Assembly: GCA_045627085.1 (NCBI GenBank)
Contig: JAZQNB010000023.1
Span: 14,591-78,590 of the forward strand
Source of the DNA: Lachnospiraceae bacterium
Lineage (GTDB): Bacteria > Bacillota > Clostridia > Lachnospirales > Lachnospiraceae
Length of the DNA: 64,000 nucleotides
Direction: 5' to 3'
Shown here: positions 46,489 to 62,323 of the stretch, one piece after another
How the letters are laid out: each line of letters starts with the position of its first letter
Position numbering within the stretch: position 1 is the stretch's first letter
The notes under the pieces: model-generated
The model's input: the letters and a program-made list of their open reading frames with translations, nothing else
Told to the model about the DNA's origin: nothing
The model's database searches: none
Position numbers and translations under genes: made by a program

Positions 46489-46501
46489 GAGGTAGGTGCG
46501 A

Positions 46502-47401
46502 ATGAACTTTTTTGATAAATACGAAGAAAAAAAAGACGGTGTTATTCGTGGATATGATGTGCGAAGCACTAAAGTAAAGATTTTAGCCATTGTAATCATG
46601 GTGCTTTGTATGCTTTTGGTACTTATCTCATTGTTCCCTGCAGTATGGGTTTTCCTTGCAAGCTTTAAAGATTTGAAGGAATTTACCAGAGAGGTTTCAA
46701 TATTCCCTAAGGAATTTGACTGGAGCAGGATGCTTGGAACATGGAAAGCATTTAAGTTCACTACATATTACAGAAATTCATTGTTTGCAATCCTTGGATG
46801 TTCGACCTGCGCAATTATTTTCAACGGACTTCTGGCATATGGATTTGCAGTACTTAAACCCAAGGGAAGCGGTGTGGCCTTAGCTTTGGTTATGTGGTCA
46901 CTCATGATTCCCGGAATTACAAGTATAGTTGCTTTATTTAGAAATATTAATCTCATTGGATTAAACAAGAGCTTTATTCCTTTGTGGCTGGCATTTGGTG
47001 CAAATGCATTCTGGGTTGTTCTTTTTAAAGAGTATTTTGAAGGCATCCCCAAGGAATTACTTGAAGCCGCAAAGCTTGACGGATGTGGCGTTTTACAGAT
47101 TTTCTCCAAAATTATGTTGCCTTTATCCAAACCTATTTTGATGGTAGTTGCAATATTCTCAGTAACTGCAGCATGGTCTGATTTCCTGCTTCCATATCTG
47201 GTTTTAAACGGAGCAAGATTTGCAGACGGAACAGAAAAGATTACTGTTATGGTTAAGCTGTTCTCCTTCAAGGATACCCCGACAGATGCAGTCAGTGTCC
47301 TTAGAGCAAGCTTCTTTGCAATCATACCGCCTACCATTATTTTTGCAATATTCCAGAAACAGATTACAGACGGTGCAGCAAGCGGAGCTGTAAAGGGGTA
47401 A
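46502..47401 (+). CDS. Carbohydrate ABC transporter permease (MalG-like)
   Basis: EAA loop 'LLEAAKLDGCGVLQIFSKIMLPLSKP'. The ORF opens at GTG 46496; ATG 46502 follows AGGAGGTAGG. Confidence 0.9.
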   Translation: MNFFDKYEEKKDGVIRGYDVRSTKVKILAIVIMVLCMLLVLISLFPAVWVFLASFKDLKEFTREVSIFPKEFDWSRMLGTWKAFKFTTYYRNSLFAILGCSTCAIIFNGLLAYGFAVLKPKGSGVALALVMWSLMIPGITSIVALFRNINLIGLNKSFIPLWLAFGANAFWVVLFKEYFEGIPKELLEAAKLDGCGVLQIFSKIMLPLSKPILMVVAIFSVTAAWSDFLLPYLVLNGARFADGTEKITVMVKLFSFKDTPTDAVSVLRASFFAIIPPTIIFAIFQKQITDGAASGAVKG

Positions 47402-47446
47402 ATTGGTCAACCGGTTTTATATATTAACAGAAAGGTAATAACTATC

Positions 47447-49714
47447 ATGGCAAAGGTAGCAGACAGTTATTTTAAAATTAATCCATGGAAAATAATTGAG
47501 GAAGGCTTTAACCCTGACTACAGCGAAGTCGCTGAGTCAGTGTTCTCCCTCGGAAATGAATATATGGGTGTTAGAGGATACCTTGAGGAAGGCTACAGTG
47601 GGAAAACACTTCTGGGCAGCTACTTTAACGGTGTTTATGAAAGAGAAAAAGCAAAGGCTCCCGGCTATAAGGGAATTGTTCAGGAAACAGAGTTTATGGT
47701 TAACTCTCTCGACTGGTTATATACGGTTATAGTTGCCGGAGACGAAAAGCTTGATCTTAAGAAGAGTAAAATTAAAGATTTTGTTCGTGAACTTGACTTA
47801 AGGACAGGCTTACTTACCAGAAGCTTTGTATGGGAAACACAAAAAGGAGACATTAAGCTGACCTTTGAAAGACTTATTTCCATGACCAGAAATGAGCAGG
47901 CTTCCCAGAGAATTACGGTCGAATCTGTTGATTTCTGTGGCAGCTTTAACGTTAAATCTGGACTGAATTTCGATACATTTCATGGTGGAAAAGAGAAATA
48001 TTGGAATTTCTCAGAGCTTAAATCCGATAAAGGAATACTTCATATCAAAGGAACAACCAAGAACACCGGAATGTGTGTTGAGAGCTTCGCAGCTTTGTCA
48101 GGTTGCCTTACCAAGAAGGCCGAAAGCGCAACAATAAAGGAAGACAATAAGGTATATACAGAGTATTTTTTAAGCCTTGAAAAAGGCGAGAAGGTATGCC
48201 TTGAGAAAAACGTTATTAATTTAACTCCGCTTTCCGATTTGACAGCACCACTTGTTTTCAAAACTCTTGAGGAAGTAAGCTTTGACAGCTTATATGAAGA
48301 GTGTAAAGAATACTGGGCAAATGTATGGTCCAAATCAGATATAGAGATTGATGGCGATGAGGAAAATCAACAGGGTATCAGATTCTGTATATTCCAGATG
48401 TTCCAGACATATCACGGAGCTGTTCGCGGAACCAATATCGGAGCTAAGGGACTTACAGGTGAGGCCTATAACGGAAATGCTTTCTGGGATACCGAGACTT
48501 ACTGCCTGCCTTTCTATCTGTTCCATGACAAGACAGCTGCAAAGAATCTTCTCTATTTCAGATATGCAACACTTGCTGAGGCCAGAAACAGAGCTGATGC
48601 ACTGGATTGTAAAGGAGCATTTTATCCAATCGCTACTATTTCCGGAAGAGAGTGCTGTTCTTTATGGCAGCACGCATCCTTACAGCTTCAGGCTTCTACG
48701 GCTGTAGCCTACGGAATATGGTTCTATGAGAAGATTACAAAGGATTATTCCTTTGCTGAAGAGTTTGGATTAGAAATGTTAATCGAGATTTGCCGTATGC
48801 TTGCAACTCGTGGAGACTACAATGCTGATCATACTAAATACGGTTATTATTGCGTAATGGGACCTGATGAGTTCCAGATGATGGTAAACAACAATTGCTA
48901 TACGAACCTTATGGGTAAGTTTACATTTGATTATACACTTGAAGTTATGGACAGAATGAAAGCTTCCAATGCTTCAAGACTTTCGGAGGTACTTAAGAAA
49001 GTAAATTACAGTGAGGATGAGGGAAAGGATTGGAGCGAGAAATCAGCTGCCATGCTTATTCCCTTCGATGAGGACAGAAAGCTTTTCGAACAGCATCAGG
49101 GCTATTTTGAACTTCCCGATGTTGACCCGGATAAGATTCCGGTAGAAGAATTCCCGCTGTATGCACACTGGTCCTACGACAGAATTTACAGAAACAACAT
49201 GATTAAACAGCCTGATGTACTTATGTTTTTACTCATGTTTAATTCTTCCTATTCGGAAGAAGTGCTTCGCGCAAATTATGATTACTATGAGCCTAAATGT
49301 ATTCACGAGAGTTCACTTTCACCTTCTGTTCATTCCATCTTGGCTGAACAGCTTGGCAAATTTGACGAAGCCTTTGATTTCTTTAAGTTTGCGACTAGAA
49401 TGGATCTCGACAATTACAACAGAAATTCAAACGAAGGTCTTCATACTACATCAATTGCGGCAGCATGGATGAATATCGTTTACGGCTTTGGCGGACTTCG
49501 TTCCGACACAGATGTACTTTCCTTCGCTCCTCAGATTCCGGAGCATTGGAATGGCTACAAGTTCCGTATAGTATGCAACGGCGATGTAATTTGTGTTGAG
49601 GTTGACAAAAAAGCTTCACGCTTCAAGACCTTAAGCGGAAAAGAGATGACAGTAAGGATTTATGGTGAAACCGCAGTGATTTCGGGACAGGAAAAGGAAT
49701 TCGCCATTAAATAA
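47447..49714 (+). CDS. GH65 alpha-glucoside phosphorylase (maltose/kojibiose/nigerose/trehalose phosphorylase family), copy 1
   Basis: 755 aa. 'GEAYNGNAFWDTE', general-acid region 'VMGPDEFQMMVNNNCYTN', 'YEPKCIHESSLS' as in GH65. Confidence 0.9.
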   Translation: MAKVADSYFKINPWKIIEEGFNPDYSEVAESVFSLGNEYMGVRGYLEEGYSGKTLLGSYFNGVYEREKAKAPGYKGIVQETEFMVNSLDWLYTVIVAGDEKLDLKKSKIKDFVRELDLRTGLLTRSFVWETQKGDIKLTFERLISMTRNEQASQRITVESVDFCGSFNVKSGLNFDTFHGGKEKYWNFSELKSDKGILHIKGTTKNTGMCVESFAALSGCLTKKAESATIKEDNKVYTEYFLSLEKGEKVCLEKNVINLTPLSDLTAPLVFKTLEEVSFDSLYEECKEYWANVWSKSDIEIDGDEENQQGIRFCIFQMFQTYHGAVRGTNIGAKGLTGEAYNGNAFWDTETYCLPFYLFHDKTAAKNLLYFRYATLAEARNRADALDCKGAFYPIATISGRECCSLWQHASLQLQASTAVAYGIWFYEKITKDYSFAEEFGLEMLIEICRMLATRGDYNADHTKYGYYCVMGPDEFQMMVNNNCYTNLMGKFTFDYTLEVMDRMKASNASRLSEVLKKVNYSEDEGKDWSEKSAAMLIPFDEDRKLFEQHQGYFELPDVDPDKIPVEEFPLYAHWSYDRIYRNNMIKQPDVLMFLLMFNSSYSEEVLRANYDYYEPKCIHESSLSPSVHSILAEQLGKFDEAFDFFKFATRMDLDNYNRNSNEGLHTTSIAAAWMNIVYGFGGLRSDTDVLSFAPQIPEHWNGYKFRIVCNGDVICVEVDKKASRFKTLSGKEMTVRIYGETAVISGQEKEFAIK

Positions 49715-49742
49715 CAATAAAACGAAAAGGGAGATGAGGGAT

Positions 49743-51935
49743 ATGCCGGACTTTATTATCGGAGAAAATGAATATGATGAAGAAAAAGCAGCTACTCTTG
49801 GTAACAGGTACCTGATCGGAAACGGATACATAGGAATCAGAGGTACCTTGGATGAGTATACCTCGGAACTGCTCCCTGCCATTAATCTGGCAGGTATATA
49901 TGACCGGGCCGGAGAGGGATGGAGAGAACCAATTAACCTTCCCAACGGTTGTTATACATACCTTAAGGTGGATGGCGAAATATATAAACTGCCGGACCGT
50001 CAGGCATCCGAACACCATGTAAAATTAAACTACAGATATGGTTTGTTCAGCAGACTGACAACCTGGCATACGGATAGAGGAAATATTTCTCTTATCGCGG
50101 AACGTTTTGCATCTATGGACAATGTTCATGTGATTGGCAATAAGTATACGGTAACAGCGGATTTTCATGCCGATGTAGAGCTTTTGACCGGTATAGACTG
50201 CGTAGTATGGGATTTAAACGGTCCTCATCTTGAAAGAGTGATAATGGAGGACAAGGGAGGAGACCTTTTGGTTCAGGCCTCAACTCATGAAGAAAAAAAA
50301 GCAATTGCCGTAGCAGAAACCGTTAAAGTTAGTTTCCCTGCGGAAGTAGGCCAGTTAATCAAAGGCGAAAAGATTTTACATAAGATTTCATTTGTAACAA
50401 AACCCGGCGAGGATTATACCGCACAGAAATGGGTAGTGATATATACATCAAACGATTGCCCTAATCCGGTTGGAAGTGCTATGGCCGGCTTAAATGAGTT
50501 GAAAGCTTCCTGCTATGAAGAACAGCTTGATGCACATAAATCAAAATGGGATGAGCTTTGGCTTCGTTCGGAGGTTACCATTGAAGGAGATGAAGAGGCT
50601 GACAGAGCATTGAATTATTCACTGTATCACCTTCATTCGATAGCACCAAGACATACAAAGAGCTTATCGATTCCCGCGAGAGGACTTTCAGGTCAGACAT
50701 ATAAGGGAGCAGTTTTCTGGGATACGGAAATGTTTATGCTTGATTTCTTTATGATGACAGATCCCGACACCGCGAGAACTCTGATGAGATACAGAATAGA
50801 CACCCTTGAAGGCGCATTGAAAAAAGCAAAGAGTTATGGCTTTGAAGGTGCATTTTATGCATGGGAAAGTCAGGAGGGCGGATATGATGCTTGCTCTGAT
50901 TATAACGTAACAGACGTATTCACCGGTCGTCCCATGAGGACCTTCTTCAAGGATAAACAGATGCACATCACTTCTGCTGTATGCTATGGAATTTGCAGAT
51001 ATGTAGACTGGACAGGCGATGAATCACTCTTAGATGAAAAAGGTGTAAAAACCATCATTGAATGTGCAAACTTCTACTACAGCCTGTTGCTTAAGTTTGC
51101 GAACAAAGACTATTATGAGCTTCATGACTGCATCGGACCCGATGAATATCATGAGAGAATAAACAATAATGCCTATACGAACCGTATGGCAAAATATACA
51201 TTTGAAAAAGCTGTGGAAGTAATTGAAAAAGCCATGAAAAACGGCACGCTTCCCGAGGGCTATGACGGCAAACGTCTTATGGCGAAATTTAACGATGCCG
51301 CATCAAATCTGTACATCCCCAAACCCTGTACAGATGAAAACGATAGTATCCATTCGGACGTAATCGAACAGTTTGACGGATACTTTAAATTAGAAGATGC
51401 AAGCTTATCAGAAGTTCGTGGAAGACTTCTCCACGAAAAAGAATATTGGGGTGGAGCATATGGCGTTGCAAGCCATACTCAGGTTATCAAGCAGGCGGAT
51501 GTAGTAACCATGCTTAATCTGTTCAGCGATGAATACGATGAAGAAATACTTCGAAAGAATTGGGAGTTCTATGAGCCCAGAACCGAGCATGGTTCTTCAC
51601 TGTCAGCTGGAATGTATTCAATGCTTGCCTGCAAAATTGGTGAGCCTGACAGAGCTTATCCTTTCTTTATCAAATCTGCTTCGGCAGATATTAAAGGTGG
51701 CGGAAAGGAATGGGCAGGACTTGTCTACATAGGCGGAACACATCCCGCAGCTGCCGGCGCTGCTTACATGACGGCAATAGAAGGCTTTGCCGGAGTGAGA
51801 ATTAAAAATGGCAAGCTTACCGTTAATCCCAGCCTTCCTAAGTCTATAAAAGGAATGCGCTTTAAGATTTTCCACATGGGAAAAGAATACGAGATTGAGA
51901 TTAAAGGCAATCTTGCACAGATTAATGAATGTTAA
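49743..51935 (+). CDS. GH65 alpha-glucoside phosphorylase, copy 2
   Basis: ~730 aa. 'GQTYKGAVFWDTE', 'CIGPDEYHERINNNAYTN', 'YEPRTEHGSSLS'. The ORF opens at ATG 49734; ATG 49743 is better spaced from AAGGGAG. Confidence 0.9.
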   Translation: MPDFIIGENEYDEEKAATLGNRYLIGNGYIGIRGTLDEYTSELLPAINLAGIYDRAGEGWREPINLPNGCYTYLKVDGEIYKLPDRQASEHHVKLNYRYGLFSRLTTWHTDRGNISLIAERFASMDNVHVIGNKYTVTADFHADVELLTGIDCVVWDLNGPHLERVIMEDKGGDLLVQASTHEEKKAIAVAETVKVSFPAEVGQLIKGEKILHKISFVTKPGEDYTAQKWVVIYTSNDCPNPVGSAMAGLNELKASCYEEQLDAHKSKWDELWLRSEVTIEGDEEADRALNYSLYHLHSIAPRHTKSLSIPARGLSGQTYKGAVFWDTEMFMLDFFMMTDPDTARTLMRYRIDTLEGALKKAKSYGFEGAFYAWESQEGGYDACSDYNVTDVFTGRPMRTFFKDKQMHITSAVCYGICRYVDWTGDESLLDEKGVKTIIECANFYYSLLLKFANKDYYELHDCIGPDEYHERINNNAYTNRMAKYTFEKAVEVIEKAMKNGTLPEGYDGKRLMAKFNDAASNLYIPKPCTDENDSIHSDVIEQFDGYFKLEDASLSEVRGRLLHEKEYWGGAYGVASHTQVIKQADVVTMLNLFSDEYDEEILRKNWEFYEPRTEHGSSLSAGMYSMLACKIGEPDRAYPFFIKSASADIKGGGKEWAGLVYIGGTHPAAAGAAYMTAIEGFAGVRIKNGKLTVNPSLPKSIKGMRFKIFHMGKEYEIEIKGNLAQINEC

Positions 51936-51955
51936 ATTCAAAAAACAAATATATA

Positions 51956-52966
51956 TTATAGCTGTTTGACACTTAAACGCTCCACCAATCTGGTGGAAAG
52001 AGTGATTTCGGTAGTATCCAGAGGCTTCCCGGATAATTGTTGGAGCATAAAGTCAACAGCGAGTCGTCCCTTTAAATTAAAGTCCTGGTGAATGGTTGTA
52101 AGAGGCGGGTCAACCAGTTGCGACAAAGTGATGTCATCGAAACCGACGATAGAAATATCCTCAGGTATTCTTTTACCCTTCTCTTTCAAAGCAGCCATTA
52201 TACCTGCGGCCATGATATCTGCGGAGACAACGAGACCTGTCATGTCAGGATGCTCAACTATGGATTTCACGCAGAGCTTACAGGAAGGAATATCCATTTC
52301 CTGCTGGAAAACCAGTCCTTTGTCAAAAGGAATTCCGGCATCCGCAAGGGCTGATTTATATCCCAGAAAACGTTCCTGCAAAACACCGCCGTCTTTGATG
52401 TTGGGCGATGCAAATCCGATTCTTTTATGGCCTTTGTCAATGAGATGTTTGGTTGCATTATAGCTTCCGTCAAAATCCTCCAAACCGACATTACAAAATC
52501 TGGGCGCATTGGCATAGGAGTCCAAAAGAACAACGGGAATGTTTAATCCGGAGAGGGAATCCAAAAATTTATCTTTGAAAATGCCTGTAAAGAACAGACC
52601 ATCCATATTCCAACGGGTTAGAAAGCGAACCAGTTCTTCAGCATTTTCAACAGTTCTAAGCATTAAGAAATAGCCATTTTCACGGAGCGTGGATTCGATG
52701 GCACCGATTACGGCAGAGTGAAAAGGATCTTCCATAAAGTTTGAATCATCTCGCGTAATTATATGGTTTACAAATCCAATCACCTTGGATGAACTGGAGA
52801 CCAGACTTCGCGCAGACATATTTGGAATATATCCAAGCTCCTTTATGGCATCGTTTATTTTCTGTATTGTTTCTGCAGATACACGTTTGTCTTTTCCGTG
52901 AATTACATTAGAAACTGTGGTGGCTGAAACGCCTGTAGCGTTTGCAATATCTCTGATGGTGACCAT
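51956..52966 (-). CDS. LacI-family transcriptional regulator
   Basis: N-terminal HTH 'VTIRDIANATGVSATTVSNVIHG' plus a Peripla_BP sugar-binding core. Convergent with the GH65 genes, with only a 20-bp gap. Confidence 0.9.
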   Translation of the reverse strand: MVTIRDIANATGVSATTVSNVIHGKDKRVSAETIQKINDAIKELGYIPNMSARSLVSSSSKVIGFVNHIITRDDSNFMEDPFHSAVIGAIESTLRENGYFLMLRTVENAEELVRFLTRWNMDGLFFTGIFKDKFLDSLSGLNIPVVLLDSYANAPRFCNVGLEDFDGSYNATKHLIDKGHKRIGFASPNIKDGGVLQERFLGYKSALADAGIPFDKGLVFQQEMDIPSCKLCVKSIVEHPDMTGLVVSADIMAAGIMAALKEKGKRIPEDISIVGFDDITLSQLVDPPLTTIHQDFNLKGRLAVDFMLQQLSGKPLDTTEITLSTRLVERLSVKQL

Positions 52967-53001
52967 GGCTTCTCCTTAGGGCTATTTTTTTTATACGATT
53001 C

Positions 53002-53015
53002 GTTTAACGTTTAAC
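53002..53015. promoter_or_regulatory. Third candidate operator, GTTTAACGTTTAAC, in the lacI/pgmB divergent intergenic region
   Basis: Shares GTTTAACGTT with the 43738 and 43871 sites. Lies 36 bp upstream of the LacI start and 105 bp upstream of pgmB. Confidence 0.4.
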
Positions 53016-53119
53016 TAAGTGTAATTATAAAGCAAATCAGGGGAAAAAAGCAATTGCAATTCCTGGTTTACATATAACTTTTTATTAATTTTAGCATATT
53101 AAGAATGGAGTAACAAGGA

Positions 53120-53770
53120 ATGATAAAAGGAATTATTTTTGATTTGGACGGAGTTTTGGTTTCAACCGACGAAATGCACTATCTTGCATGGAAAAAATTG
53201 GCAGATGACCTGGGAATAACAGGCTTTACCAAGGAAGATAATAAGCGTCAGCGTGGAGTAAGCCGTATGGCATCCCTTGAGGTAGTCCTTGAAAAATCTG
53301 ACAAAAAGTACACCGATGAGGAAAAATTAGAGCTGGCAGACAGAAAGAATAACTTCTATTTAGAGCTTTTAAAAACAATGGATGATTCTGCAGTATTAAA
53401 GGATGTTAAGCCCACACTTTCAGCTTTAAAGGAAAGAGGACTTATGCTTGCCCTCGGTTCTGCTTCAAAAAATGCACCTGCAATTATTGAGAAAACAGGA
53501 ATAGCACCTTATATGGATAAGGTGAGCTGTGGCCTTGATACTCAGAAATCAAAGCCCGATCCTGAAGTATTTTTGATTGCTGCAAAGAAGCTGGGACTTG
53601 ATCCTTCGGAATGTGTTGTGGTTGAGGATTCTCAGGCAGGAATAGATGCGGCAAAGGCAGGCGGATTTACATCCCTGGCAGTAGGTCCTTTTCATGATTC
53701 TATGGGAGCTGACTTTAATGCACCGCTTCTTTGTGAAGTAAACAATTGGGACGAAATCATCAACAGATGA
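53120..53770 (+). CDS. pgmB: Beta-phosphoglucomutase (HAD superfamily)
   Basis: 'IIFDLDGVLVSTDE' (DxDG nucleophile motif), 'GVSRMASLE', 'LGSASKNA', 'SKPDPEVFL', 'VVVEDSQAGIDAAKAGG'. Close resemblance to L. lactis beta-PGM as I recall it. Confidence 0.9.
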   Translation: MIKGIIFDLDGVLVSTDEMHYLAWKKLADDLGITGFTKEDNKRQRGVSRMASLEVVLEKSDKKYTDEEKLELADRKNNFYLELLKTMDDSAVLKDVKPTLSALKERGLMLALGSASKNAPAIIEKTGIAPYMDKVSCGLDTQKSKPDPEVFLIAAKKLGLDPSECVVVEDSQAGIDAAKAGGFTSLAVGPFHDSMGADFNAPLLCEVNNWDEIINR

Positions 53771-53822
53771 TTCAGCTATAAACAGACAAACTATATAATG
53801 TAAGAAAGAGGAGGAAATACTA

Positions 53823-55382
53823 TTGAAAAAGGTGGCAATTGGTTTGCAGTATGTACTCATGCTTGCTCTGATAGCAGCGGCAGTTTTAGCCGTTCCGGTT
53901 ATCAGGGAAAACAAAATTAAAGCGCAGGAGGCCTTAAAGCTTTCGAATGCGAAGGTTGTGCTCTATGACGGCCCCAAGACACTTAGAGATGCAACGGAGG
54001 AGGATTTAAAAAATACGGCGGAAAATAATCGTGATTTTTCGCTCCTTCATTGTACGGACACAATCGTTACGGTAAACGGTGAGGAGGCCTATGTGTATGA
54101 TACAAATGTCAATCATACCAGAAGCTGGGTTTCAAGCTACTATCCTCCACAGAGCAGAACTCCCATAACCTATTTTGATTTTGAGGGAACTGTGGAAATA
54201 TGTGTAACGGTACCCAATATTGATATTGAAACCGTAAAGATCAGTCCCTTATCATATGGAATTGAACCGGTGGTGGATGCAGATGCTCACACGGTTACCT
54301 TTAGGATTGACAATCCGGACAATTATACGCTTCAGTTTAACGCTTCTCCGGAACGTGCTCTTCATATTTTTGCTTTCCCTCTTGAAACAGAGGAAGAGCT
54401 TGCTGTCAGGAATGACCCTGCAACAATAGTGATTGAGCCCGGTGAGTGGAATATAGAAAATGTTTCTCTTTCAAGCGGGCAGACTCTTTATATCAGTGGC
54501 GGTGCGGTTGTACACGGAACGGTTTGTGCAAACTTTGCAAGTAAGATAACGGTAATGGGCCATGGTATTTTGGACGGCTCTAAAATAGAAGGCTGGAAGG
54601 GAACTACAGCTTACATTCCTTTGAAGTTTGACCACTGTTCAGAAGTTACACTAAAAGATATCATTGTCACCAACCCTAATGCATGGGTTGTACAGCAATA
54701 CGATTCCAAGGACGGAATAATTGACGGACTTAAGATTATTTCATCTCGTCCTAACGGCGACGGAATTTCCATGCAGTCAGCACAGAACTATGAGGTGAAG
54801 AATTGTTTTGTACGAAGCTGGGATGATTCACTTGTTGTTAAAAATTATGATACAAATTCAGAAAATCTTTATTTCCATGATATTCAGATATGGACTGATT
54901 TGGCTCAGTCAATGGAAATAGGGTTTGAAACCAACAAAGGTAAGAAGAATGATTCTTATATAAAGGATATCATCTTTGAAAATATAACCGTGTTGAATAA
55001 TTATCATAAGCCTGTTATCTCAGTTCACAATGCGGATGATGCCGCTCTTTCGGATATTCTTTTCAAGGATATAACGGTAGAACATGAGGAAATAGGCAGT
55101 GGGGATTCCAATTTGAAGTTCCTTATAGATATAGCTGTAGTAGAAAACTCTCAGTGGTCTTCTACATCTACAAGGGGAACCATTTCAAATGTTACTTTGG
55201 AAAATGTTAATTTTATCGAAGGTACGGAAAATGTATCACGAATCAGAGGCTTTGATACGACACATATGACTACTGACATTCATTTCAAGAATCTTACAAT
55301 GTTTGGAAAACAGATTCTTTCAGCTGAAGATGCAGGAATTAAAGTGGATGAGAACACAACATCAAATATCACTTTTGAGTAG
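53823..55382 (+). CDS. Membrane-anchored right-handed beta-helix glycosidase (GH28/GH49-like fold)
   Basis: TTG start 9 nt after AGGAGG. N-terminal TM or signal segment. 'RPNGDGISMQSAQNYEVKNCFVRSWDDSLVVKNY' resembles the NxDG..(G/W)DD motifs of parallel beta-helix glycosidases. Family assignment is tentative. Confidence 0.6.
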   Translation: MKKVAIGLQYVLMLALIAAAVLAVPVIRENKIKAQEALKLSNAKVVLYDGPKTLRDATEEDLKNTAENNRDFSLLHCTDTIVTVNGEEAYVYDTNVNHTRSWVSSYYPPQSRTPITYFDFEGTVEICVTVPNIDIETVKISPLSYGIEPVVDADAHTVTFRIDNPDNYTLQFNASPERALHIFAFPLETEEELAVRNDPATIVIEPGEWNIENVSLSSGQTLYISGGAVVHGTVCANFASKITVMGHGILDGSKIEGWKGTTAYIPLKFDHCSEVTLKDIIVTNPNAWVVQQYDSKDGIIDGLKIISSRPNGDGISMQSAQNYEVKNCFVRSWDDSLVVKNYDTNSENLYFHDIQIWTDLAQSMEIGFETNKGKKNDSYIKDIIFENITVLNNYHKPVISVHNADDAALSDILFKDITVEHEEIGSGDSNLKFLIDIAVVENSQWSSTSTRGTISNVTLENVNFIEGTENVSRIRGFDTTHMTTDIHFKNLTMFGKQILSAEDAGIKVDENTTSNITFE

Positions 55383-55393
55383 GAGGGGTAAAA

Positions 55394-56038
55394 ATGAAAA
55401 ATGTAAGAATAATACTGTTAATAGTTTTTGCCCTTGCGGCAGCAGGAATCTGGGGCTATGCGATTTCTTCAAAGCCCGCAGATGAAAACAGCGATTCCAA
55501 GGGTGATATTACCCTTGTAGCTACAACAGAACAGACTGAAATTGAGACCCCTTCATATTTTGTTGTGGAGGAATATGATCCGATTATTCCCGACGGAACC
55601 AATATTGCGGATTTGTCCAGATTTGATGCTTCCGGATACAATGACGTTTATCTTCCGGGTAAGGCAAAGGACGGAAAAACTGCCGGGGCTTCTTATTGGG
55701 AGGCTGCAGCAGATTCCTATCCTAATACGCTTACGGCCATTTTCCAGGAAAGCTTTAACGTTCATGCCGTTAAGCTCATGCTTTGTCCTCTGCCAATATG
55801 GGGAACCAGAATTCAGACCTTCTCAATTGAAGTATCTGAAGATGGCGAGAATTTTAAAGAAATCGTAGCCTCAGAGGACTATACCTTTGATCCTAAGACT
55901 GATAATGAGGTTGTTGTTGAGTTTGATGAAGTCAATATGAAATCTATCAGGCTTATTTTCACCCAAAATACCGGCGCAGTAGGGGCGCAGGTTGCAGAGT
56001 GGGAAATTTATTCCAACGATGACATTGCGTCGGAGTAA
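55394..56038 (+). CDS. Membrane-anchored discoidin (F5/8 type C, CBM32-like) domain protein
   Basis: N-terminal TM segment. C-terminus '..FNVHAVKLML..IQTFSIEVSEDGENFKEIV..MKSIRLIFTQNTGAVGAQVAEWEIYS' as in discoidin domains. Confidence 0.7.
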   Translation: MKNVRIILLIVFALAAAGIWGYAISSKPADENSDSKGDITLVATTEQTEIETPSYFVVEEYDPIIPDGTNIADLSRFDASGYNDVYLPGKAKDGKTAGASYWEAAADSYPNTLTAIFQESFNVHAVKLMLCPLPIWGTRIQTFSIEVSEDGENFKEIVASEDYTFDPKTDNEVVVEFDEVNMKSIRLIFTQNTGAVGAQVAEWEIYSNDDIASE

Positions 56039-56051
56039 ATAACTAATTGAC

Positions 56052-56087
56052 AAAAAACAACCTAAGAATTCCTTAGGTTGTTTTTTT
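56052..56087 (+). terminator. Strong rho-independent terminator closing the pgmB-glycosidase-discoidin unit
   Basis: caacctaag / cttaggttg stem, extended by A6/T7 arms, with a 5-nt loop and a T7 run. Confidence 0.7.
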
Positions 56088-56138
56088 ATATCCATTTTTG
56101 GGTTTCGCCGCCCATAAAACAATAAGAAAAGGAGAAAA

Positions 56139-56396
56139 ATGAGAATACTGGGAAAAAAGAGAGTCGAAGTATTAACTTCCATTGAAGCGTACGCTGCGTG
56201 CAGCCCTTCAACAGGCTGTGATTCAGATGTATTGTGTGCATGCGCCTGTCGTGAAAACAAAAAGAATGGCGGATATACCGTACGAAATGTATCGCTGCAG
56301 ACGACTAACTGCAAGATTGAGAATTCCGCTTACTGGTCAAATTATATCAAGAAAAACGGAAATTACAGTCCCTATAATTATAGTTGCAAAAGATAG
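56139..56396 (+). CDS. RiPP precursor peptide, Cys-rich, paralog 1 (85 aa)
   Basis: MRILGKKRVEVLTSIEAYAACSPSTGCDSDVLCACACRENKKNGGYTVRNVSLQTTNCKIENSAYWSNYIKKNGNYSPYNYSCKR. RBS AAGGAG. Has 7 Cys. Lies upstream of the rSAM/SPASM gene. Confidence 0.75.
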   Translation: MRILGKKRVEVLTSIEAYAACSPSTGCDSDVLCACACRENKKNGGYTVRNVSLQTTNCKIENSAYWSNYIKKNGNYSPYNYSCKR

Positions 56397-56427
56397 CGTT
56401 TGCTAAAACAAAGAAGAGGAGAAATAT

Positions 56428-56673
56428 ATGAAAAGAATAGGAAAGAAAAGAGAAACAGTATTAAGCTCTATTGAAGCTTATGCATCCTGCAGCCCTTCAA
56501 CAGGCTGTGATTCAGACTTTCTGTGTAAATGTAATTGTTCACATGGAGGAACAAGTGCGAGCATGGCACCTCCGCAGTCATCAAACTGCAAGATGGAGAA
56601 TTCCGCTTACTGGTCAAATTATATCAAAAATAACGGTAATTACAGCCCTTATAATTATGGTTGCAAGAGATAA
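56428..56673 (+). CDS. RiPP precursor peptide, Cys-rich, paralog 2 (81 aa)
   Basis: MKRIGKKRETVLSSIEAYASCSPSTGCDSDFLCKCNCSHGGTSASMAPPQSSNCKMENSAYWSNYIKNNGNYSPYNYGCKR. RBS AGAGGAG. Has 7 Cys at the same positions. Confidence 0.8.
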   Translation: MKRIGKKRETVLSSIEAYASCSPSTGCDSDFLCKCNCSHGGTSASMAPPQSSNCKMENSAYWSNYIKNNGNYSPYNYGCKR

Positions 56674-56699
56674 ATTGAGGTTGGTAAAAGGAATTTAGG

Positions 56700-56951
56700 A
56701 TGAAGCATTTAGGTAAAAAAAGACAGGCCATATTACAGTCAATTGAAGCTTATGCTACATGCAGTCCTTCAACAGGCTGTGACTCAGACTTCTTATGTAA
56801 GTGTAATTGTATTCATCATCAATCCAGCGCAAGTATGGCTCCTCCGCAAACAACTAATTGCAGAATGGAGGATTCAGCATATTGGGCAGATTATATTAAG
56901 CATAATGGTAATTATGCACCATATAACTATGCTTGCGTAAGAGGACATTAA
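56700..56951 (+). CDS. RiPP precursor peptide, Cys-rich, paralog 3 (83 aa)
   Basis: MKHLGKKRQAILQSIEAYATCSPSTGCDSDFLCKCNCIHHQSSASMAPPQTTNCRMEDSAYWADYIKHNGNYAPYNYACVRGH. Has 7 Cys at the same positions. Confidence 0.8.
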   Translation: MKHLGKKRQAILQSIEAYATCSPSTGCDSDFLCKCNCIHHQSSASMAPPQTTNCRMEDSAYWADYIKHNGNYAPYNYACVRGH

Positions 56952-57023: not shown

Positions 57024-58463
57024 ATGGAATGTAACAAACCAAATATTCACTTGTTCAGAACTTTGGGGGGATTCTATTTTTACGATGTAAACACATCAGG
57101 AATAGTAAGGGTAAATGAAAGCATTTATAATCTGTTAAAAGAAAACAGGGAGCCGGACAATGAAGAGGATGCAAAGAAGCTTGATATCCTTAAGAAGAAT
57201 GGTTTTTTGCTGGACAGATATCCGGATGAAATAAAACATCCGCAGACAGATTATATTGAAGATATATTAAATGACAGTATTGAAATGATAACATTGCAGG
57301 TTACGCAACAGTGCAATTTCAGATGTGAGTACTGCCCATATACTTTGGGAAAAGGGGACAGAAAACATTCAAATAAGAGGATGGATTTTGAAACTGCTAA
57401 AAGCGGAATTGATTTCTTCCTTTCACACTCGGGTAATGTTGATACTCCTGTTATCGGCTTTTATGGTGGAGAGCCTTTGCTGGAATTTAATATGATAAAA
57501 GACATCATAGAATATGCAGAGAAAAAAGCCGGAGGGAAACATCTGGGATTTACGTTTACAACAAACGGAAGCATGCTTACCGATGATAAAATCGAATATT
57601 TTATAGAGCATCAGGTAGTTGTAATGATAAGTCTGGACGGTCCTAAGGAGATTCAGGACAAAAACAGAAAGCTGGCCGGAAGCGGACAGGGTTCTTTTGA
57701 AAAAGTAATGGAAAACGTAATGCATCTGTATGAGAAATACCCGGATTATGTGAAGACGAACATTCAGTTTAATTCAGTAATAGATCCTGTAAACAATTTC
57801 GGATGCTTTAATGAATTCTTTATCAACGCAGAGGCCATTAACAATTCAAGCCTGTTAAAGACACAGGTATTGGAGAGCAAATACACTGACTATCATACTC
57901 AGGAAGCCAGAGAATTCTTTACGGCAAGAGAGGCTGAAATATGCAAGCTCTTCTTGTCAAAGCTTGGTAGATTTGATGAGGAAAAGGTTTCACCGCTTGT
58001 CAAACTCCAGTTTGATGAAATGATGGATAAATTCCATGGGAAAAGAAAACCGACGAACATGTTGCCGCTGGTTTCACATCCTTCAGGTCCGTGTGTTCCC
58101 GGAAGTGCAAGAATTTTCCTTAGCACAGACGGAGATTTCTTACCCTGTGAAAAGGTATCTGAAACATCCAAGGCTTTTGTAATCGGAAACATAGATACAG
58201 GTATTGACTTCGAAGCAGCAAAGAGGATGCTTAATATCAGTTCCATCATTGGAGAAACCTGTAAGAAATGTTGGGCATTTACCCAATGTGTATGCTGTGC
58301 TAACGGCTGTGAAGAGGGCGATGAGTTTTCACCCAAAAAGAAGCTTTCCGACTGTCAGTCAGTACGCGCTTTTATTGAAGAAGAAATGATCAATTATTGT
58401 ACACTTAAGGAGTTAGGCTGTGATTACACAGGCTACGGCTTTGACAATTATTTTGAAATATAG
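57024..58463 (+). CDS. Radical SAM / SPASM-domain peptide maturase with N-terminal RRE-like domain
   Basis: 'QQCNFRCEYCPY' (CxxxCxxC). 'GFYGGEPLL' (SAM-binding GGE). C-terminal auxiliary-cluster cysteines 'GPCVPGSARIFLSTDGDFLPCEK' (C..Gx4C) and 'CKKCWAFTQCVCCANGC'. The N-terminal ~85 aa 'GGFYFYDVNTSGIVRVNESIYNLLK' is typical of peptide-binding RRE modules of such maturases. Confidence 0.9.
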   Translation: MECNKPNIHLFRTLGGFYFYDVNTSGIVRVNESIYNLLKENREPDNEEDAKKLDILKKNGFLLDRYPDEIKHPQTDYIEDILNDSIEMITLQVTQQCNFRCEYCPYTLGKGDRKHSNKRMDFETAKSGIDFFLSHSGNVDTPVIGFYGGEPLLEFNMIKDIIEYAEKKAGGKHLGFTFTTNGSMLTDDKIEYFIEHQVVVMISLDGPKEIQDKNRKLAGSGQGSFEKVMENVMHLYEKYPDYVKTNIQFNSVIDPVNNFGCFNEFFINAEAINNSSLLKTQVLESKYTDYHTQEAREFFTAREAEICKLFLSKLGRFDEEKVSPLVKLQFDEMMDKFHGKRKPTNMLPLVSHPSGPCVPGSARIFLSTDGDFLPCEKVSETSKAFVIGNIDTGIDFEAAKRMLNISSIIGETCKKCWAFTQCVCCANGCEEGDEFSPKKKLSDCQSVRAFIEEEMINYCTLKELGCDYTGYGFDNYFEI

Positions 58464-58473
58464 GAGGCAGAGA

Positions 58474-59607
58474 ATGAGTTTATCGGGAAAAATTACGGTG
58501 TATCCTTACGACAGTGCGTTTACACCTATAGTAAGACACAAGACTTTACTTGGGGAACTTGAAATTGCTCATTTGGTTTCTCCTTTTTCCTTTGGTTATT
58601 GCGGAAAAGATGCAGGAGCTGCAGACCGCGGACCGGACACGGGATTGATTGTAGAGGAAGACTTTTCAGAGTGTATTAAGGACAGCGATTATGTACTGTT
58701 TGTACCTACTGAAGTAAAGTATGATTACGAGCAAATGATTGTTCCAAAGCTCGAGGAAGCTATAAATGCAGGCAAAAACATTATCATGTCGATTAAGCTT
58801 GCCAAAGAAAGATGTGATGAAATCAGCAGAAAATGTGAAGAAAAGAACACTTTATTCTATTACCTCAGATTAAAAGACTGGGAAAGTATTAAGCTTGATC
58901 CACCGGAATTATCTTCACACAGATTAAACAGAATAGATACACCCGTTGTATTTGTAATGGGAGACGGTGAAAGAACAGGAAAATTTGAGACACAGTTAGC
59001 ACTCAGAGAATTTTTCCTGAAAGAAGGCTACAAGGTAAGCCAGATAGGCTCCAGAGATTATTGCGAGTTGCTTGGATTCAGGTCTGCTCCGGGATTTCTT
59101 TTCGAGCCCAGGCTTGAAATGGAGAAAATCTTCCTATTCAATGAGTATGTAAAGAATATTGAGCTTTATGAAAAGCCGGATGTTATTATCATTGGTATTC
59201 CCGGTTCAATTATGGCATTAAACAAGAGTAATTCAACATATTGCGGAATTACGGCATTCGAGATATCAAATGCAATATCACCTGATGCGACAGTATTTTG
59301 CATGTACGATATCAGCTGGGATATTAAGTACTATGAGGAGCTTAAGCAGGTAATGAAGCATAAATTCGGATTTGAACCTGATGCTTTTGTAATGAGCAAC
59401 ACCAGGATAGACTGGATGGGTATGGCCGAGAAACGAAACAGAATGTATATTTTTACTCTTGCAGAAGAAAAAGTGAATGCACATAGAAATATGCTTCAGA
59501 TGCACGGAATAGAAGCGGTTAATATTCTGGATGCTACAGATGCACGGAAAATGTGTGAGACAGTAGAGGACAAACTTGCTTCATATGCCGATGTCGACAG
59601 CTTTTAG
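58474..59607 (+). CDS. Peptide-maturation partner protein of unknown function (two Rossmann-like halves; P-loop-like 'GDGERTGK')
   Basis: 377 aa. ATG 58474 lies 7 nt after AGGAGG; the ORF is open from 58420. I recognise no catalytic family. Tightly packed between the rSAM and ACP-like genes. Confidence 0.7.
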   Translation: MSLSGKITVYPYDSAFTPIVRHKTLLGELEIAHLVSPFSFGYCGKDAGAADRGPDTGLIVEEDFSECIKDSDYVLFVPTEVKYDYEQMIVPKLEEAINAGKNIIMSIKLAKERCDEISRKCEEKNTLFYYLRLKDWESIKLDPPELSSHRLNRIDTPVVFVMGDGERTGKFETQLALREFFLKEGYKVSQIGSRDYCELLGFRSAPGFLFEPRLEMEKIFLFNEYVKNIELYEKPDVIIIGIPGSIMALNKSNSTYCGITAFEISNAISPDATVFCMYDISWDIKYYEELKQVMKHKFGFEPDAFVMSNTRIDWMGMAEKRNRMYIFTLAEEKVNAHRNMLQMHGIEAVNILDATDARKMCETVEDKLASYADVDSF

Positions 59608-59620
59608 GAGGAAATGACAA

Positions 59621-59869
59621 ATGAGTGTTTACGAAAGATTACGAAAGGTTTTTTTACAGAGAACAGAACTGGATTTAGATAATGTTATCGACCCCTATAA
59701 CAACTTGTCATTACATGACCCATTGTTTAATTTTTCCGCTTCTGATATGCTGTATATATTCTTTGACGTGGAAAAAGAATTTGGTATTACAATACCTGAA
59801 GAAGCTATAGAGAAGAATGAAATCTTTACCATAAACGGGTTGATTAAAACAATTACGGAGCAAATGTAA
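59621..59869 (+). CDS. Acyl-carrier-protein-like small protein
   Basis: 82 aa. '..FNFSASDMLYIFFDVEKEFGITIPEEAIEK..' aligns with ACP helix II/III ('[27 protein letters not shown]'). The canonical D-S-L is replaced by S-A-S-D-M-L. Confidence 0.65.
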   Translation: MSVYERLRKVFLQRTELDLDNVIDPYNNLSLHDPLFNFSASDMLYIFFDVEKEFGITIPEEAIEKNEIFTINGLIKTITEQM

Positions 59870-61689
59870 TGAAGAAAATTCTTTCGAAAATGAGTGGAAT
59901 CGGAAAAAGCATAGAGTTTGGCATGAGAGTATCTTTGGAAGCCTCAAAGCATTTAATGGTACAAAGAGTGTTGTATCAGTTGCTTTTGGCTGCAATACCC
60001 TCCTGTACGGCGTACCTTACCAAGCTTTTACTCGACACTCTGTCCGAAAGCAGTAATATTAAGGCATTTCGCCCCGTCATACTGCTCCTTGCAGCTTATT
60101 TCGTATTAAGAGTGTTGCAGGAGGTGATTTCAAAACTGTCTGAAAGCACTTCCGCTCTTCATCAGGATAAAATCAGCAACATGATAGATGTGAAGCTTAT
60201 GAGTCAGAGCAACCGACTGGATATTTCCTATTTCGATTCGCCCGAATGCTACGATGAAGCATATAATGCCAGGATTGATTCCGGAGCACTTAGTGTAATG
60301 ACATGGAGCATTATTAGTATGCTGGGAAGCTTTCTCAGCTTTATTATTGCTCTGGTTGTCATGCTAAAATGCAATGTAATATTTACAATTGTTCTCATAG
60401 CACTCAGCATACCTTCTGTCATAGTAGAAAGAAATTATTCTCAGAAGATGTATAATTGGAGCAGAGAATGCGCACCGATTTTTAGGAAAATGGGTTATCT
60501 TTCATCGATTGCCACAGACAGAGGGTTTGCAAAAGACATCCGTATATTTGGAATATATGACTACATAAGGGAGAAACATCAGAATTTATGGGCTGCGTGG
60601 TACACAGAAAAGAAAGAGTGGACTCTTAAGAAGCTGTTAATAGTAACACTTATTTCGATTCTGCCGGAAATCGGCATCCTGGGCATTCTGATATATGTAT
60701 GCTATCAAATATGGCAGGGTAGCATGAGCATAGGAGATTTCACCTTTGTTTCCGGTATGACCTTCCAACTGATAGGGGCTGTTTGGACAATGATTTACGG
60801 TCTTGTTCAAATATATGAGAATAATTTAAAAATAACAAATTACTCCAAATTCCTTAGCAGAGAAGCCTTGGTTAAGAACGATGGAACCCTTGAACCGTCA
60901 GAACATCCCCAAATTGAATTTAAGGATGTTTCCTTCAGGTATCCGTCCACAGATAATTATGTGTTAAAAAATGTCAGTTTTAATATAAAGCCGGGAGAAA
61001 AGATAGCATTTGTAGGTGAAAACGGATCCGGAAAAACTACAATTGTGAAGCTGTTACTGCGACTTTATGATGTCACCGAAGGTGCTATTATGATTGACGG
61101 TGTCAACATAAAGGACATGGAGCTTAATAAATTACGCAGAATGTATTCAGTGATGTTCCAGGATTATAATCAATATGCCTTCTCCGTGGATGAAAACATC
61201 AGACTTTCAGATATTAATGATACGGATTATGAACAAAAGCTGAAGGAATCAAAAGAATATTTTGAAATTGATAAACTGTGCAAAAAGCATAACATTACGG
61301 GCGATACATATTTAACCAGACAATTTGAAGAAAACGGAGTTGAACTCTCCGGAGGTGAATGGCAAAAAATAGCTCTTGCGAGGGCATATTTTAAACGAGG
61401 CTCCATGCTGATACTCGATGAGCCCAATGCAGCGTTGGACCCCGCGGCCGAAGACAGAGTATTTAAAAGCATTACCTCGTTATATGCAGAAAACAGTGCC
61501 ATATTAATTTCACACAGATTATCAAATGTGATTATGGCAGACAGGATTTTTTATATAGAAAACGGGACTATTACAGAGTCAGGCAGTCATGATGAATTGT
61601 TAAAAAGCAAAGGCGGCTATGCCAGACTGTTCAATTTGCAGGCAGAGAAATACGTAAGGAGTTTAAATGAGAATTGCGATAATAGATGA
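59869..61689 (+). CDS. ABC exporter (fused TMD-NBD, type I exporter; no N-terminal C39 peptidase domain)
   Basis: 606 aa. Six-TM N-terminal half. Walker A 'GENGSGKTT', signature 'LSGGEWQKIALARA', Walker B 'MLILDEP'. Its start overlaps the ACP-like stop (TAATG). Confidence 0.9.
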   Translation: MKKILSKMSGIGKSIEFGMRVSLEASKHLMVQRVLYQLLLAAIPSCTAYLTKLLLDTLSESSNIKAFRPVILLLAAYFVLRVLQEVISKLSESTSALHQDKISNMIDVKLMSQSNRLDISYFDSPECYDEAYNARIDSGALSVMTWSIISMLGSFLSFIIALVVMLKCNVIFTIVLIALSIPSVIVERNYSQKMYNWSRECAPIFRKMGYLSSIATDRGFAKDIRIFGIYDYIREKHQNLWAAWYTEKKEWTLKKLLIVTLISILPEIGILGILIYVCYQIWQGSMSIGDFTFVSGMTFQLIGAVWTMIYGLVQIYENNLKITNYSKFLSREALVKNDGTLEPSEHPQIEFKDVSFRYPSTDNYVLKNVSFNIKPGEKIAFVGENGSGKTTIVKLLLRLYDVTEGAIMIDGVNIKDMELNKLRRMYSVMFQDYNQYAFSVDENIRLSDINDTDYEQKLKESKEYFEIDKLCKKHNITGDTYLTRQFEENGVELSGGEWQKIALARAYFKRGSMLILDEPNAALDPAAEDRVFKSITSLYAENSAILISHRLSNVIMADRIFYIENGTITESGSHDELLKSKGGYARLFNLQAEKYVRSLNENCDNR

Positions 61690-62293
61690 TGGTGTAAATC
61701 CCGAATACATTGCGAACAATGCAGTAGTTCTGTCGGTGAAAGTGGATGACGATCGACAAGTAGTTCAGACCGTTTACGACAGCGACAGACCGATTTCACA
61801 TGGAACGATATGTGCAATGATAATCGATAAATACTGCAGGGATGTTAATTTGGTCAGTATAAAGGTCCTGGATGAAAAGACCGACCGCGGAGAACTGTAC
61901 CGACTCATAAACGCAATTGACTGGTGTTCCCAAAATGATATTCAAATCATTAATTTGAGTTTGGGCTCAACATATCCAAAAGATTTTAAATTTATAAAAA
62001 AGGCAGTGAAACGAGCCATAAAGAATAATATTACCATTGTGGCGGCCACCGCAAATCGAAATGAAAAGGCATATCCTGCCTGCATGAAAAAAGTCATCGG
62101 CGTAAGAAAAAAGGAAGCTTTGCCATTTGAACAAACAGGCAGACAGTCCGGGATAGATGTAGAAGAACAATCAGTTCATCTTCTGAATTTGCCGGATGGT
62201 AATTCCTTTATGACACCGCCATCCAACAGCTTTGCCGCCGCATATGTTACGGCACTTACGGTAAATGAAAGCATTATAAATGGAAAAGCATAA
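61667..62293 (+). CDS. Minimal S8 (subtilisin-like) peptidase, cytoplasmic (no signal peptide), 208 aa
   Basis: Asp 'IAIIDDGV', His 'SHGTICA', oxyanion 'NLSLG', Ser context 'SNSFAAAYV' (compare GTSxAAPxV). Overlaps the ABC gene by 23 nt. RBS AAGGAG. Confidence 0.7.
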   Translation: MRIAIIDDGVNPEYIANNAVVLSVKVDDDRQVVQTVYDSDRPISHGTICAMIIDKYCRDVNLVSIKVLDEKTDRGELYRLINAIDWCSQNDIQIINLSLGSTYPKDFKFIKKAVKRAIKNNITIVAATANRNEKAYPACMKKVIGVRKKEALPFEQTGRQSGIDVEEQSVHLLNLPDGNSFMTPPSNSFAAAYVTALTVNESIINGKA

Positions 62294-62323
62294 CAGTGAA
62301 AATTGTTATGCTTTTCTTTTTTT
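62284..62323 (+). terminator. Rho-independent terminator closing the RiPP operon
   Basis: aaaagcataaca / tgttatgctttt stem with an 8-nt loop, followed by ttttcttttttt. The stop codon lies within the stem. Confidence 0.7.

Follow-up and report, generated by a model that had tools for sequence, protein, structure and literature searches.

A 64,000-nucleotide stretch of DNA from a Lachnospiraceae bacterium (contig JAZQNB010000023.1, assembly GCA_045627085.1; hereafter the window) carries three tandem open reading frames (ORFs) at positions 56139 to 56951, upstream of a gene for a radical S-adenosylmethionine (rSAM) enzyme. These ORFs almost certainly encode precursors of the CLI_3235/CcpM family of peptides that are made by the ribosome and modified after translation (RiPPs), each built from a leader, a ladder of five cysteines, a short variable linker and a conserved tail with two further cysteines. 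The explanation that best accounts for the locus as a whole combines this family membership and segment structure with thioethers between ladder and tail and with a product made from the whole core; we favor it, though only slightly beyond an even balance.

Three tandem precursors of the CLI_3235 family

The three ORFs lie on the plus strand and encode peptides of 85 residues (copy 1, 56139 to 56396), 81 residues (copy 2, 56428 to 56673) and 83 residues (copy 3, 56700 to 56951), each preceded by a Shine-Dalgarno-like sequence (AGGAG, GAGGAG and AAGGA, respectively). All three score above the curated cut-off of 26 bits for TIGR04065, NCBIfam's model for bacteriocin precursors belonging to the CLI_3235 family (27.7, 31.7 and 29.0 bits), a model that spans precursor residues 1-37 only. 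In addition, copy 2 is identical to database protein P0001, which has a PF27803 match, and precomputed PF27803 matches are attached to database proteins identical to the window precursors. The initial annotation had taken the ORFs for RiPP precursors served by the neighboring rSAM enzyme, a view supported by the TIGR04065 matches and by the adjacent maturase, which matches TIGR04068.

A MAFFT alignment of the three peptides revealed 47 invariant columns, including seven Cys: five in an N-terminal block (GKKR..L.SIEAYA.CSPSTGCDSD.LC.C.C) and two in a C-terminal block (NC..E.SAYW..YIK.NGNY.PYNY.C). The tandem ORFs, the two blocks and the seven Cys, first aligned by eye, were thus reproduced residue for residue, and the exact runs of 29 nt (TGCAGCCCTTCAACAGGCTGTGATTCAGA) and 32 nt (GAGAATTCCGCTTACTGGTCAAATTATATCAA) common to copies 1 and 2 were recovered at the positions originally given. 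Relative to copy 1, the other two copies show 69% and 62% identity. These blocks did not arise by chance, since all three peptides exceed the TIGR04065 cut-off and the blocks recur in other organisms. The three-precursor alignment contains no GG/GA motif at the end of the leader, and the peptides lack a hydrophobic, signal peptide-like N-terminus.

The precursors can be divided into a leader of 18-19 residues (M-x3-GKKR-x6-IEAY(A)), the five-Cys ladder (C-x5-C-x5-C-x-C-x-C), a variable linker of about 5 residues followed by a conserved SASMAPPQ(S/T)(S/T) segment, and a conserved tail that is rich in Asn, Tyr and Trp, with an invariant N-C-x2-E-N motif, an NG..SPY motif and a Cys 2-6 residues before its end. 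According to the alignment segments, these parts correspond in copy 2 to residues 1-19 (56428 to 56484), 20-37 (56485 to 56538), 38-50 (linker plus SASMAPPQ, 56539 to 56577) and 51-81 (56578 to 56670), all on the plus strand, and copy 3 has the same architecture. Copy 1 also has a leader (residues 1-18/19), the five-Cys ladder and the conserved two-Cys tail, and it alone carries a replaced center with four extra residues (RENKKNGGYTVRNVSLQ). Mean pairwise identity in a 10-sequence alignment of the clade described below was 0.65 for the leader, 0.65 for the ladder, 0.54 for the tail and 0.60 for the SASMAPPQ segment (0.70 when copy 1 is left out and 1.00 for copy 2 against copy 3), compared to 0.22 for the 5-residue linker after C37. 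The "hypervariable center" of the initial annotation therefore shrinks to the linker: the SASMAPPQ segment is conserved, 9 of the 15 residues assigned to that center are identical between copies 2 and 3, and the divergence is mainly a peculiarity of copy 1.

We gathered further family members from CcpM loci in reference genomes, by a protein search and by scanning metagenomes with a leader pattern; about 45 were compared overall and 31 were parsed for leader, ladder and tail. The leader measures exactly 18 residues to EAY/EAF in 31/31 parsed members (motif M[KR]KLGKK-x8-EAY), a spacing that the metagenome scan itself imposed on the members it found. In a diverse alignment, the (near-)invariant columns were M1, G5, K6, E16, A17, Y18 and three Cys. 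After EAY, the Cys ladder spans 8-21 residues and the tail 17-52 residues; ladders elsewhere in the family are mostly CxCxC runs without acidic partners, and the tails, rich in S (18%), N (12%), Y (9%), A, T and G, differ between lineages and are conserved within them. On the family scale, then, these sequences follow ordinary RiPP logic, with a conserved leader and a variable core. The "atypical leader/core logic" that had been suggested is not seen at this scale, since residues 1-18 are conserved family-wide and the rest varies by lineage, and the N-terminal block really joins the leader to the opening portion of the core; comparing only three close paralogs had made the two seem one unit. 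Within one subgroup (P0014, P0019, P0020 and P0025), the ladder and the extreme C-terminus, ...(S/N)NYSK, are conserved and the mid-tail is variable. On account of this subgroup, conservation of both ends appears to recur within family lineages.

Tail length rises with ladder span across the family (Spearman 0.78, p 1.6e-6, slope ~1.5; 27 non-redundant groups), and the correlation is still 0.77 without the window clade. The 27 groups were formed manually; when the cores were clustered automatically at 45% identity, almost all of them merged, and P0013, whose differently arranged ladder was split by the parser, was left out. Tails are free of Cys in 25 of the 27 groups. A conserved pair of tail Cys is confined to the window clade, the other exception being P0024, which has a single Cys near its end.

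To delimit this clade, we relied on an exhaustive HMMER scan with the tail block against 1.84 billion cluster representatives (50%-cluster level), which returned only the clade and one divergent peptide; members were then traced from the scan matches and from TIGR04066 orthologs to their contigs. The clade comprises 10 distinct peptides in 7 distinct gene clusters with the same operon throughout, including those of a Lachnospiraceae metagenome-assembled genome (MAG) and a Herbinix MAG. Each of the 10 sequences retains the seven Cys, with the second shifted by one position in two of them; P23, T25, Q50, N53, C54, E57, G70, P74, Y75 and C79 are invariant, and N58 and W62 nearly so (W62 is replaced in P0006). 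The initial annotation would have given up its reading had the C-terminal block proved to be restricted to this genome, and these 10 sequences from 7 clusters demonstrate that it is conserved elsewhere. Within the clade, CcpM is 58-71% identical and TIGR04066 49-54%, compared to 36-45% and 37-41%, respectively, with other family loci. The clade is thus distinct and rare, and its enzymes form a matching one. We do not regard the locus as a new kind of system: it is an already catalogued CLI_3235/CcpM system with a long, two-Cys tail of Lachnospiraceae type.

The proportion of synonymous differences (pS) is 0.45-0.69 between copies 1 and 2 and 0.66-0.86 in pairs with copy 3. With synonymous sites this near to saturation (pS 0.45-0.86), the copies are not recent duplicates. 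The corresponding nonsynonymous proportion (pN) is 0.02-0.17 in ladder and tail and 0.25-0.53 in the center; when copies 1 and 2 are compared, constraint is strongest in the tail (pN 0.06 vs pS 0.45), and the leader has a pN of 0.18. We ran the per-segment dN/dS comparison that the initial annotation had proposed and found no sign of values above 1 among the copies. Positive selection on the center was not supported (dN/dS 0.38-0.57 for copy 1 against the others, a rough estimate with synonymous sites near saturation), and all three copies are under purifying selection. Copies 1 and 2 have the lowest pS in ladder and tail, with runs of 10-13 codons that have identical third positions; this pattern fits patchy gene conversion, or a later duplication after which the center of copy 1 was replaced. 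Of the suggestion that copies 1 and 2 reflect recent duplication or gene conversion, the conversion-like runs and low pS are borne out, but the copies as a whole are not recent duplicates. Similarly, copy 3, which had been called older, is the most diverged at synonymous sites, but it is copies 2 and 3 that keep the ancestral center, so copy 1 is the derived copy. Some features are common to the three copies and occur in none of the relatives (e.g. NGNY-SPYNY, where relatives have NGK-SPY), and the closest syntenic relative, the metagenome contig L026 (ENA ERZ15609894), has a single precursor followed by ccpM; the triplication therefore arose, or is homogenized, in the lineage of the window.

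Proposed ladder-to-tail cross-linking and its alternatives

The gene that follows the precursors (57024 to 58463, plus strand) encodes a 479-aa CcpM rSAM/SPASM maturase, as judged by TIGR04068 (539.9 bits; cut-off 500) and Pfam Radical_SAM. It has a CX3CX2C motif at residues 97-104, SPASM Cys motifs at 357-375 and 413-429, and about 85 residues ahead of the rSAM core, which we presume to bind the leader; its nearest solved structure is CteB (5WGG, E 3e-33). The next-best families are all Cys-thioether formers, namely RumMC (213 bits), lachnocin (210), PapB (165), QhpD (160) and the SCIFF maturase (144), and all of these scores fall below their cut-offs. It has been reported that type I sactipeptides place Cys donors N-terminally and acceptors C-terminally in a nested hairpin, that ruminococcin C forms a double hairpin (PMC8172795), and that PapB links Cys to Asp or Glu (PMC9413430).

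We propose that the N-terminal part of CcpM would bind the leader and that its rSAM/SPASM core would form thioethers from Cys thiols to carbons of acceptor residues downstream. Ladder and tail would in this way be joined in a nested-hairpin-like fold in which the variable linker serves as the turn, an arrangement that would constrain both flanks of the core and leave its middle freer. The whole 61-66-residue core would be the substrate and, apart from some possible trimming, also the product. From the two tail Cys might come either a disulfide or a small ring of Cys54-Glu57 type together with a C-terminal link: the invariant C54-x2-E57-N58 would suit a short Cys-Glu ring of the PapB/QhpD type, and C79 would provide the further link or disulfide. 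Leader removal near the EAY/A boundary would fall to the compact S8 protease and export to the C39-less ABC transporter, both by analogy, and the TIGR04066 protein with its Ser-less acyl carrier protein (ACP)-like partner would perform a further step. The three copies would then yield three product variants, that of copy 1 with a rebuilt turn region.

Two observations led us to propose the whole post-leader peptide as the substrate: the ladder-then-tail layout fits the sactipeptide plan, and ladder span is coupled to tail length. Furthermore, the tail seems to behave as core and not as a recognition follower, in that it is lineage-specific despite conserved enzymes, carries invariant Cys and is the most constrained segment. 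AlphaFold2 (AF2) modeling of copy 2 from a 6-sequence alignment gave no confident autonomous fold (predicted local distance difference test [pLDDT] 42, predicted template modeling score [pTM] 0.29); a predicted lack of structure is what would be expected of a peptide that is modified later. The reading that the peptide is bipartite, or that the whole ~60-aa Cys-rich region is the product, had been offered at the outset and remains the best supported.

Several points weigh against this proposal. No cross-link map for any CcpM product was found in the literature searched, and we infer the thioethers, their ring topology and which carbon is attacked. Tail length shows no correlation with how many Cys the ladder has (rho 0.23), the slope of the coupling (~1.5-1.9) is steeper than a plain hairpin predicts, and the scaling could simply reflect overall peptide size. 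The product of SacP23, a family member from Paenibacillus polymyxa, falls about 1 kDa short of the mass expected if only the leader were removed, so that trimming of the tail or of the N-terminus is possible in the family. In addition, 3/10 clade sequences have lost D30 of the CDSD motif, AF2 lends the hairpin no support at pLDDT 42, and seven Cys, an odd number, fail to close in a scheme of disulfides only or of paired links only. In view of both sides, we judge ladder-to-tail thioethers with a tail kept in the product to be evenly balanced. On such a scaffold, the tail may be cross-linked separately as an additional module, such as a Cys54-Glu57 ring together with a C-terminal Cys79 link, an elaboration that we regard as possible though doubtful. 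If true, these would be the first bipartite products of the CcpM class.

Ladder and tail might instead be two independent modules, cross-linked locally and separated by a passive linker, with no bonds from ladder to tail; they could take the form of small ranthionine-type Cys-x2-Asp/Glu rings or of a ruminococcin-C-like double hairpin. Small rings would give a role to the C54-x2-E57-N58 motif and to C27-D28, which is kept in 9/10 clade sequences, and PapB forms short Cys-Asp/Glu rings (PMC9413430). In RumC, the two hairpins form independently of each other, and the maturase has RumMC as its second-best family. QhpD, which forms Cys-Asp/Glu thioethers, is also among the maturase matches, and the S8 protease resembles QhpE. 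However, the PapB, QhpD and RumMC scores are far below their cut-offs, D30 is missing from three clade members, and such modules cannot explain how tail and ladder are coupled in a wider family whose ladders lack acidic partners and whose tails are Cys-free. We therefore consider two separate modules unlikely.

A lower probability still attaches to the idea that the tail is a follower, that is, a recognition or solubilizing segment that is cut off to leave the short Cys ladder as the product. The SacP23 product, ~1 kDa below its predicted leaderless core, could be taken as a sign of such a cut, but its mass is equally compatible with N-terminal trimming; similarly, the extra domain of the S8 protease at most loci could serve a second processing event, but the window protease lacks it. 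A follower should, moreover, be conserved across the family like the leader, as the enzymes are, whereas tails differ between lineages, and in this clade two invariant Cys lie in the tail, the segment under the strongest constraint.

It is very improbable that the tail is the site of another radical chemistry, such as aromatic-to-C-beta cyclophanes of the W-x-N / Y-x-K type, with the Cys in some other role. The tail has W-S-N, Y-I-K and Y-N-Y triplets (motifs noted without a statistical test), family tails are enriched in Y and N, and the YhhB and FxsB rSAM families are among the weak maturase matches; but these two score 81 and 58 bits, far below their cut-offs, whereas thioether formers reach 143-213 bits, and W62 is replaced in P0006 and the operon has only one rSAM gene. 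Finally, we give practically no credence to unmodified, small secreted disulfide-rich proteins or non-functional duplicate ORFs: the even-plus-one Cys count and some helix predicted by AF2 (at pLDDT 42) stand against the lack of a signal peptide-like N-terminus, strict co-location with the CcpM operon in 7/7 clade gene clusters and the wider family, purifying selection on all copies and the curated TIGR04065 match.

The maturation operon and its surroundings

The precursors are followed, all in the same direction, by genes for CcpM, a TIGR04066 protein, an ACP-related protein, an ABC exporter and an S8 protease. The peptide maturation system protein TIGR04066 (377 aa, 58474 to 59607, plus strand; 360.6 bits, cut-off 200) is identical to database protein P0032. 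The ORF listing gives a GTG start at 58420, overlapping ccpM; we place the true start at the ATG at 58474 because P0032 has 377 aa and the ortholog consensus begins M....K..VYPYD, and a GGAGG Shine-Dalgarno sequence is present there. AF2 modeled this protein with a pLDDT of 92.4 and a pTM of 0.91, and Foldseek returned 2OBN, 2G0T and 7XRJ as whole-length neighbors (E 1e-11 to 1e-12, template modeling score ~0.6), which points to a two-domain fold like that of DUF1611/DgcN in the predicted structure. 2OBN and 2G0T are DUF1611 proteins, and 7XRJ is, going by the title of its entry, the N-acetyltransferase DgcN. The score against Pfam DUF1611 is 20.9 (threshold 25), and we found no solved structure with a sequence-level match. 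The mechanism outlined above may include an extra tailoring step of DUF1611 type, if it is correct.

The ACP-related protein (82 aa, 59621 to 59869, plus strand) is assigned by its best match, TIGR04069 (63.1 bits; cut-off 70), and by synteny, and it has orthologs in all clade loci. When the proteins of the window and of loci L001, L018, L022, L024, L026 and L029 were aligned with E. coli AcpP, no conserved Ser was found at the position of Ser36, the phosphopantetheine site; the sequences there are FSASD, FAAAD and FAARD. Judging from this alignment, these may not be true carrier proteins. The blocked N-terminus of SacP23 makes acyl transfer with the ACP-like protein tempting; as a candidate role for the TIGR04066 protein, transfer from acyl-ACP is weakened by an ACP-like protein that lacks the conserved Ser. 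The literature searched offers no role for the TIGR04066/ACP-like pair.

The ABC exporter (606 aa, 59869 to 61689, plus strand; Pfam ABC_tran and ABC_membrane) is a fusion of transmembrane and nucleotide-binding domains. It has no N-terminal C39 domain: in alignments with C39-bearing transporter profiles, the match begins only near profile position 145. The initial annotation had paired a leader without GG/GA with an exporter without C39, and both halves were borne out, by the leader alignment and by these profiles. The subtilisin-like S8 protease (208 aa, 61667 to 62293, plus strand; Pfam Peptidase_S8, triad D7/H45/S188) is QhpE-like (96.9 bits, cut-off 165) and is likely the leader peptidase. 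It aligns to residues 1-202 of a 524-aa ortholog, and related loci encode proteases of 381-563 aa. The C-terminal extension of these relatives (~180-350 aa, no Pfam match) is absent from the window protease, and tblastn detected no remnant of it in the window. At L024 (8480 to 9449), this extra domain is weakly similar to central TIGR04066 (hhalign E 0.0017, probability 15%), and its motifs "PIIKVIDDG...GY...KPDIIIF" resemble "TPVIFVxG...GYKVSQ...PDVIIIG" of TIGR04066; a domain duplication between the two is possible from these sequences.

The operon is closed by an intrinsic terminator-like hairpin of 16 pairs followed by a T-run (62282 to 62317, plus strand; terminator scan), which overlaps the S8 stop codon. 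A second hairpin with a T-run (aacctaag-aatt-cttaggtt-gttttttt; 56056 to 56089, plus strand) was read from the sequence 3' of an F5/8-type-C gene; with 2 G-C pairs in its stem, it falls under the minimum of 3 used by the scan. It is probably the terminator of that upstream gene, in which case the precursor operon would start afresh at about 56100. An attenuator between copy 3 and ccpM finds no support, the 72-nt spacer having no significant structure (z -1.3), and no Rfam family reached its gathering score anywhere in the window (1 to 64000).

Sugar-utilization genes surround the operon. Those at 43927 to 55382 encode an ABC sugar-binding protein and two permeases, two GH65-like phosphorylases, a LacI-type regulator (minus strand), a beta-phosphoglucomutase-like HAD protein and a GH28 enzyme; among the upstream genes, GH28 and F5/8 type C were checked against Pfam and the others were named from their translations. 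Positions 1 to 4357 of L026, compared with 49734 to 56396 of the window, carry the same upstream GH65, GH28 and F5/8 type C genes. This match places the operon at a conserved chromosomal site among genes for carbohydrate use and, as L026 has a single precursor at that site, makes the triplication specific to the lineage of the window.

Comparison with known systems

The locus differs from double-glycine-leader bacteriocins, as its leaders do not end in GG/GA and its exporter has no C39 domain. It resembles the ranthipeptides (freyrasin/PapB, thermocellin/CteB) and QhpC/QhpD/QhpE, which use thioether-forming SPASM maturases; the invariant C-x2-E might serve for links from Cys to Asp or Glu, and a small QhpE-like subtilisin is a further likeness. 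However, the maturase misses the PapB and SCIFF maturase cut-offs (164.7 vs 340 and 143.8 vs 425 bits), the Qhp cut-offs are missed as well (QhpD 159.9 vs 453, QhpE 96.9 vs 165), and the precursor family is TIGR04065 instead. With sactipeptides and ruminococcin C, the locus has in common an rSAM/SPASM maturase, N-terminal Cys donors and downstream acceptors, the last two as proposed here. The ladder-then-tail layout and the length scaling fit the nested hairpin of sactipeptides; the Cys count is uncorrelated and AF2 is uninformative. With 212.7 bits (cut-off 720), the window maturase is not a member of the RumMC equivalog, its second-best family, and sactipeptide/RumMC systems have a different leader and no TIGR04066 or ACP-like partners. 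Taken together, the missed cut-offs place the locus outside the RumMC, PapB/SCIFF and Qhp families. Ruminococcin C, too, has several precursor genes that are tandem paralogs, in the genome of a member of the Lachnospiraceae.

Within the family, we found experimental data only for SacP23 of Paenibacillus polymyxa #23. Expression of its whole cluster gave an active, heat-stable product of 3404 Da whose N-terminus is blocked to Edman degradation (PMC10731318); the predicted mass is 4.46 kDa. Mass mapping did not distinguish N-terminal from C-terminal trimming, as many precursor fragments fit 3404 Da with 0-7 cross-links. Like the window peptides, SacP23 is a CLI_3235-family precursor in which a leader of 18 residues, with EAF at its end, is followed by a Cys ladder and a tail, here rich in S, N and G, and its cluster has TIGR04068, TIGR04066, TIGR04069, ABC and subtilase genes; in contrast, it is a single-copy precursor of 60 aa with a contiguous 7-Cys ladder and a Cys-free 28-aa tail. 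This only tested member is active against methicillin-resistant Staphylococcus aureus. The same gene set, including subtilase and ABC exporter, is found in clusters of Roseburia intestinalis (PMC4573289) and Paenibacillus polymyxa (PMC10731318). Subtilase and exporter accompany the window system as well, the subtilase here having 208 aa.

The closest comparison is with the CLI_3235/CcpM system as such (TIGR04065, TIGR04068, TIGR04066 and TIGR04069; PF27803), which occurs in clostridia, Lachnospiraceae and Paenibacillus and has been catalogued since 2011. It was reportedly defined bioinformatically in that year by Haft and Basu, whose paper PMC7343975 cites. The window locus has the same leader length and motif, the same Cys-rich block after EAY and the same gene content and order, and its precursor, maturase and TIGR04066 proteins pass the respective cut-offs. 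It differs in a longer core (61-66 aa), a tail about 8 residues above the trend (z 1.6) that has two invariant Cys and a strongly conserved sequence, a sparse ladder (C-x5-C-x5-C-x-C-x-C) in place of a CxCxCxC run, three tandem precursors, and an S8 protease reduced to its catalytic domain. For the family at large, the rules that emerge are a fixed 18-residue leader, a tail length proportional to ladder span, and tail Cys almost confined to one clade; if cross-linking does join ladder to tail, that proportionality would mark a general architecture of donor and acceptor strands in a widespread clostridial RiPP class. The window offers one scaffold in three natural versions, of which two keep a conserved turn region and the third has a rebuilt one; together with a minimal protease, these make it a compact test bed for CcpM chemistry.

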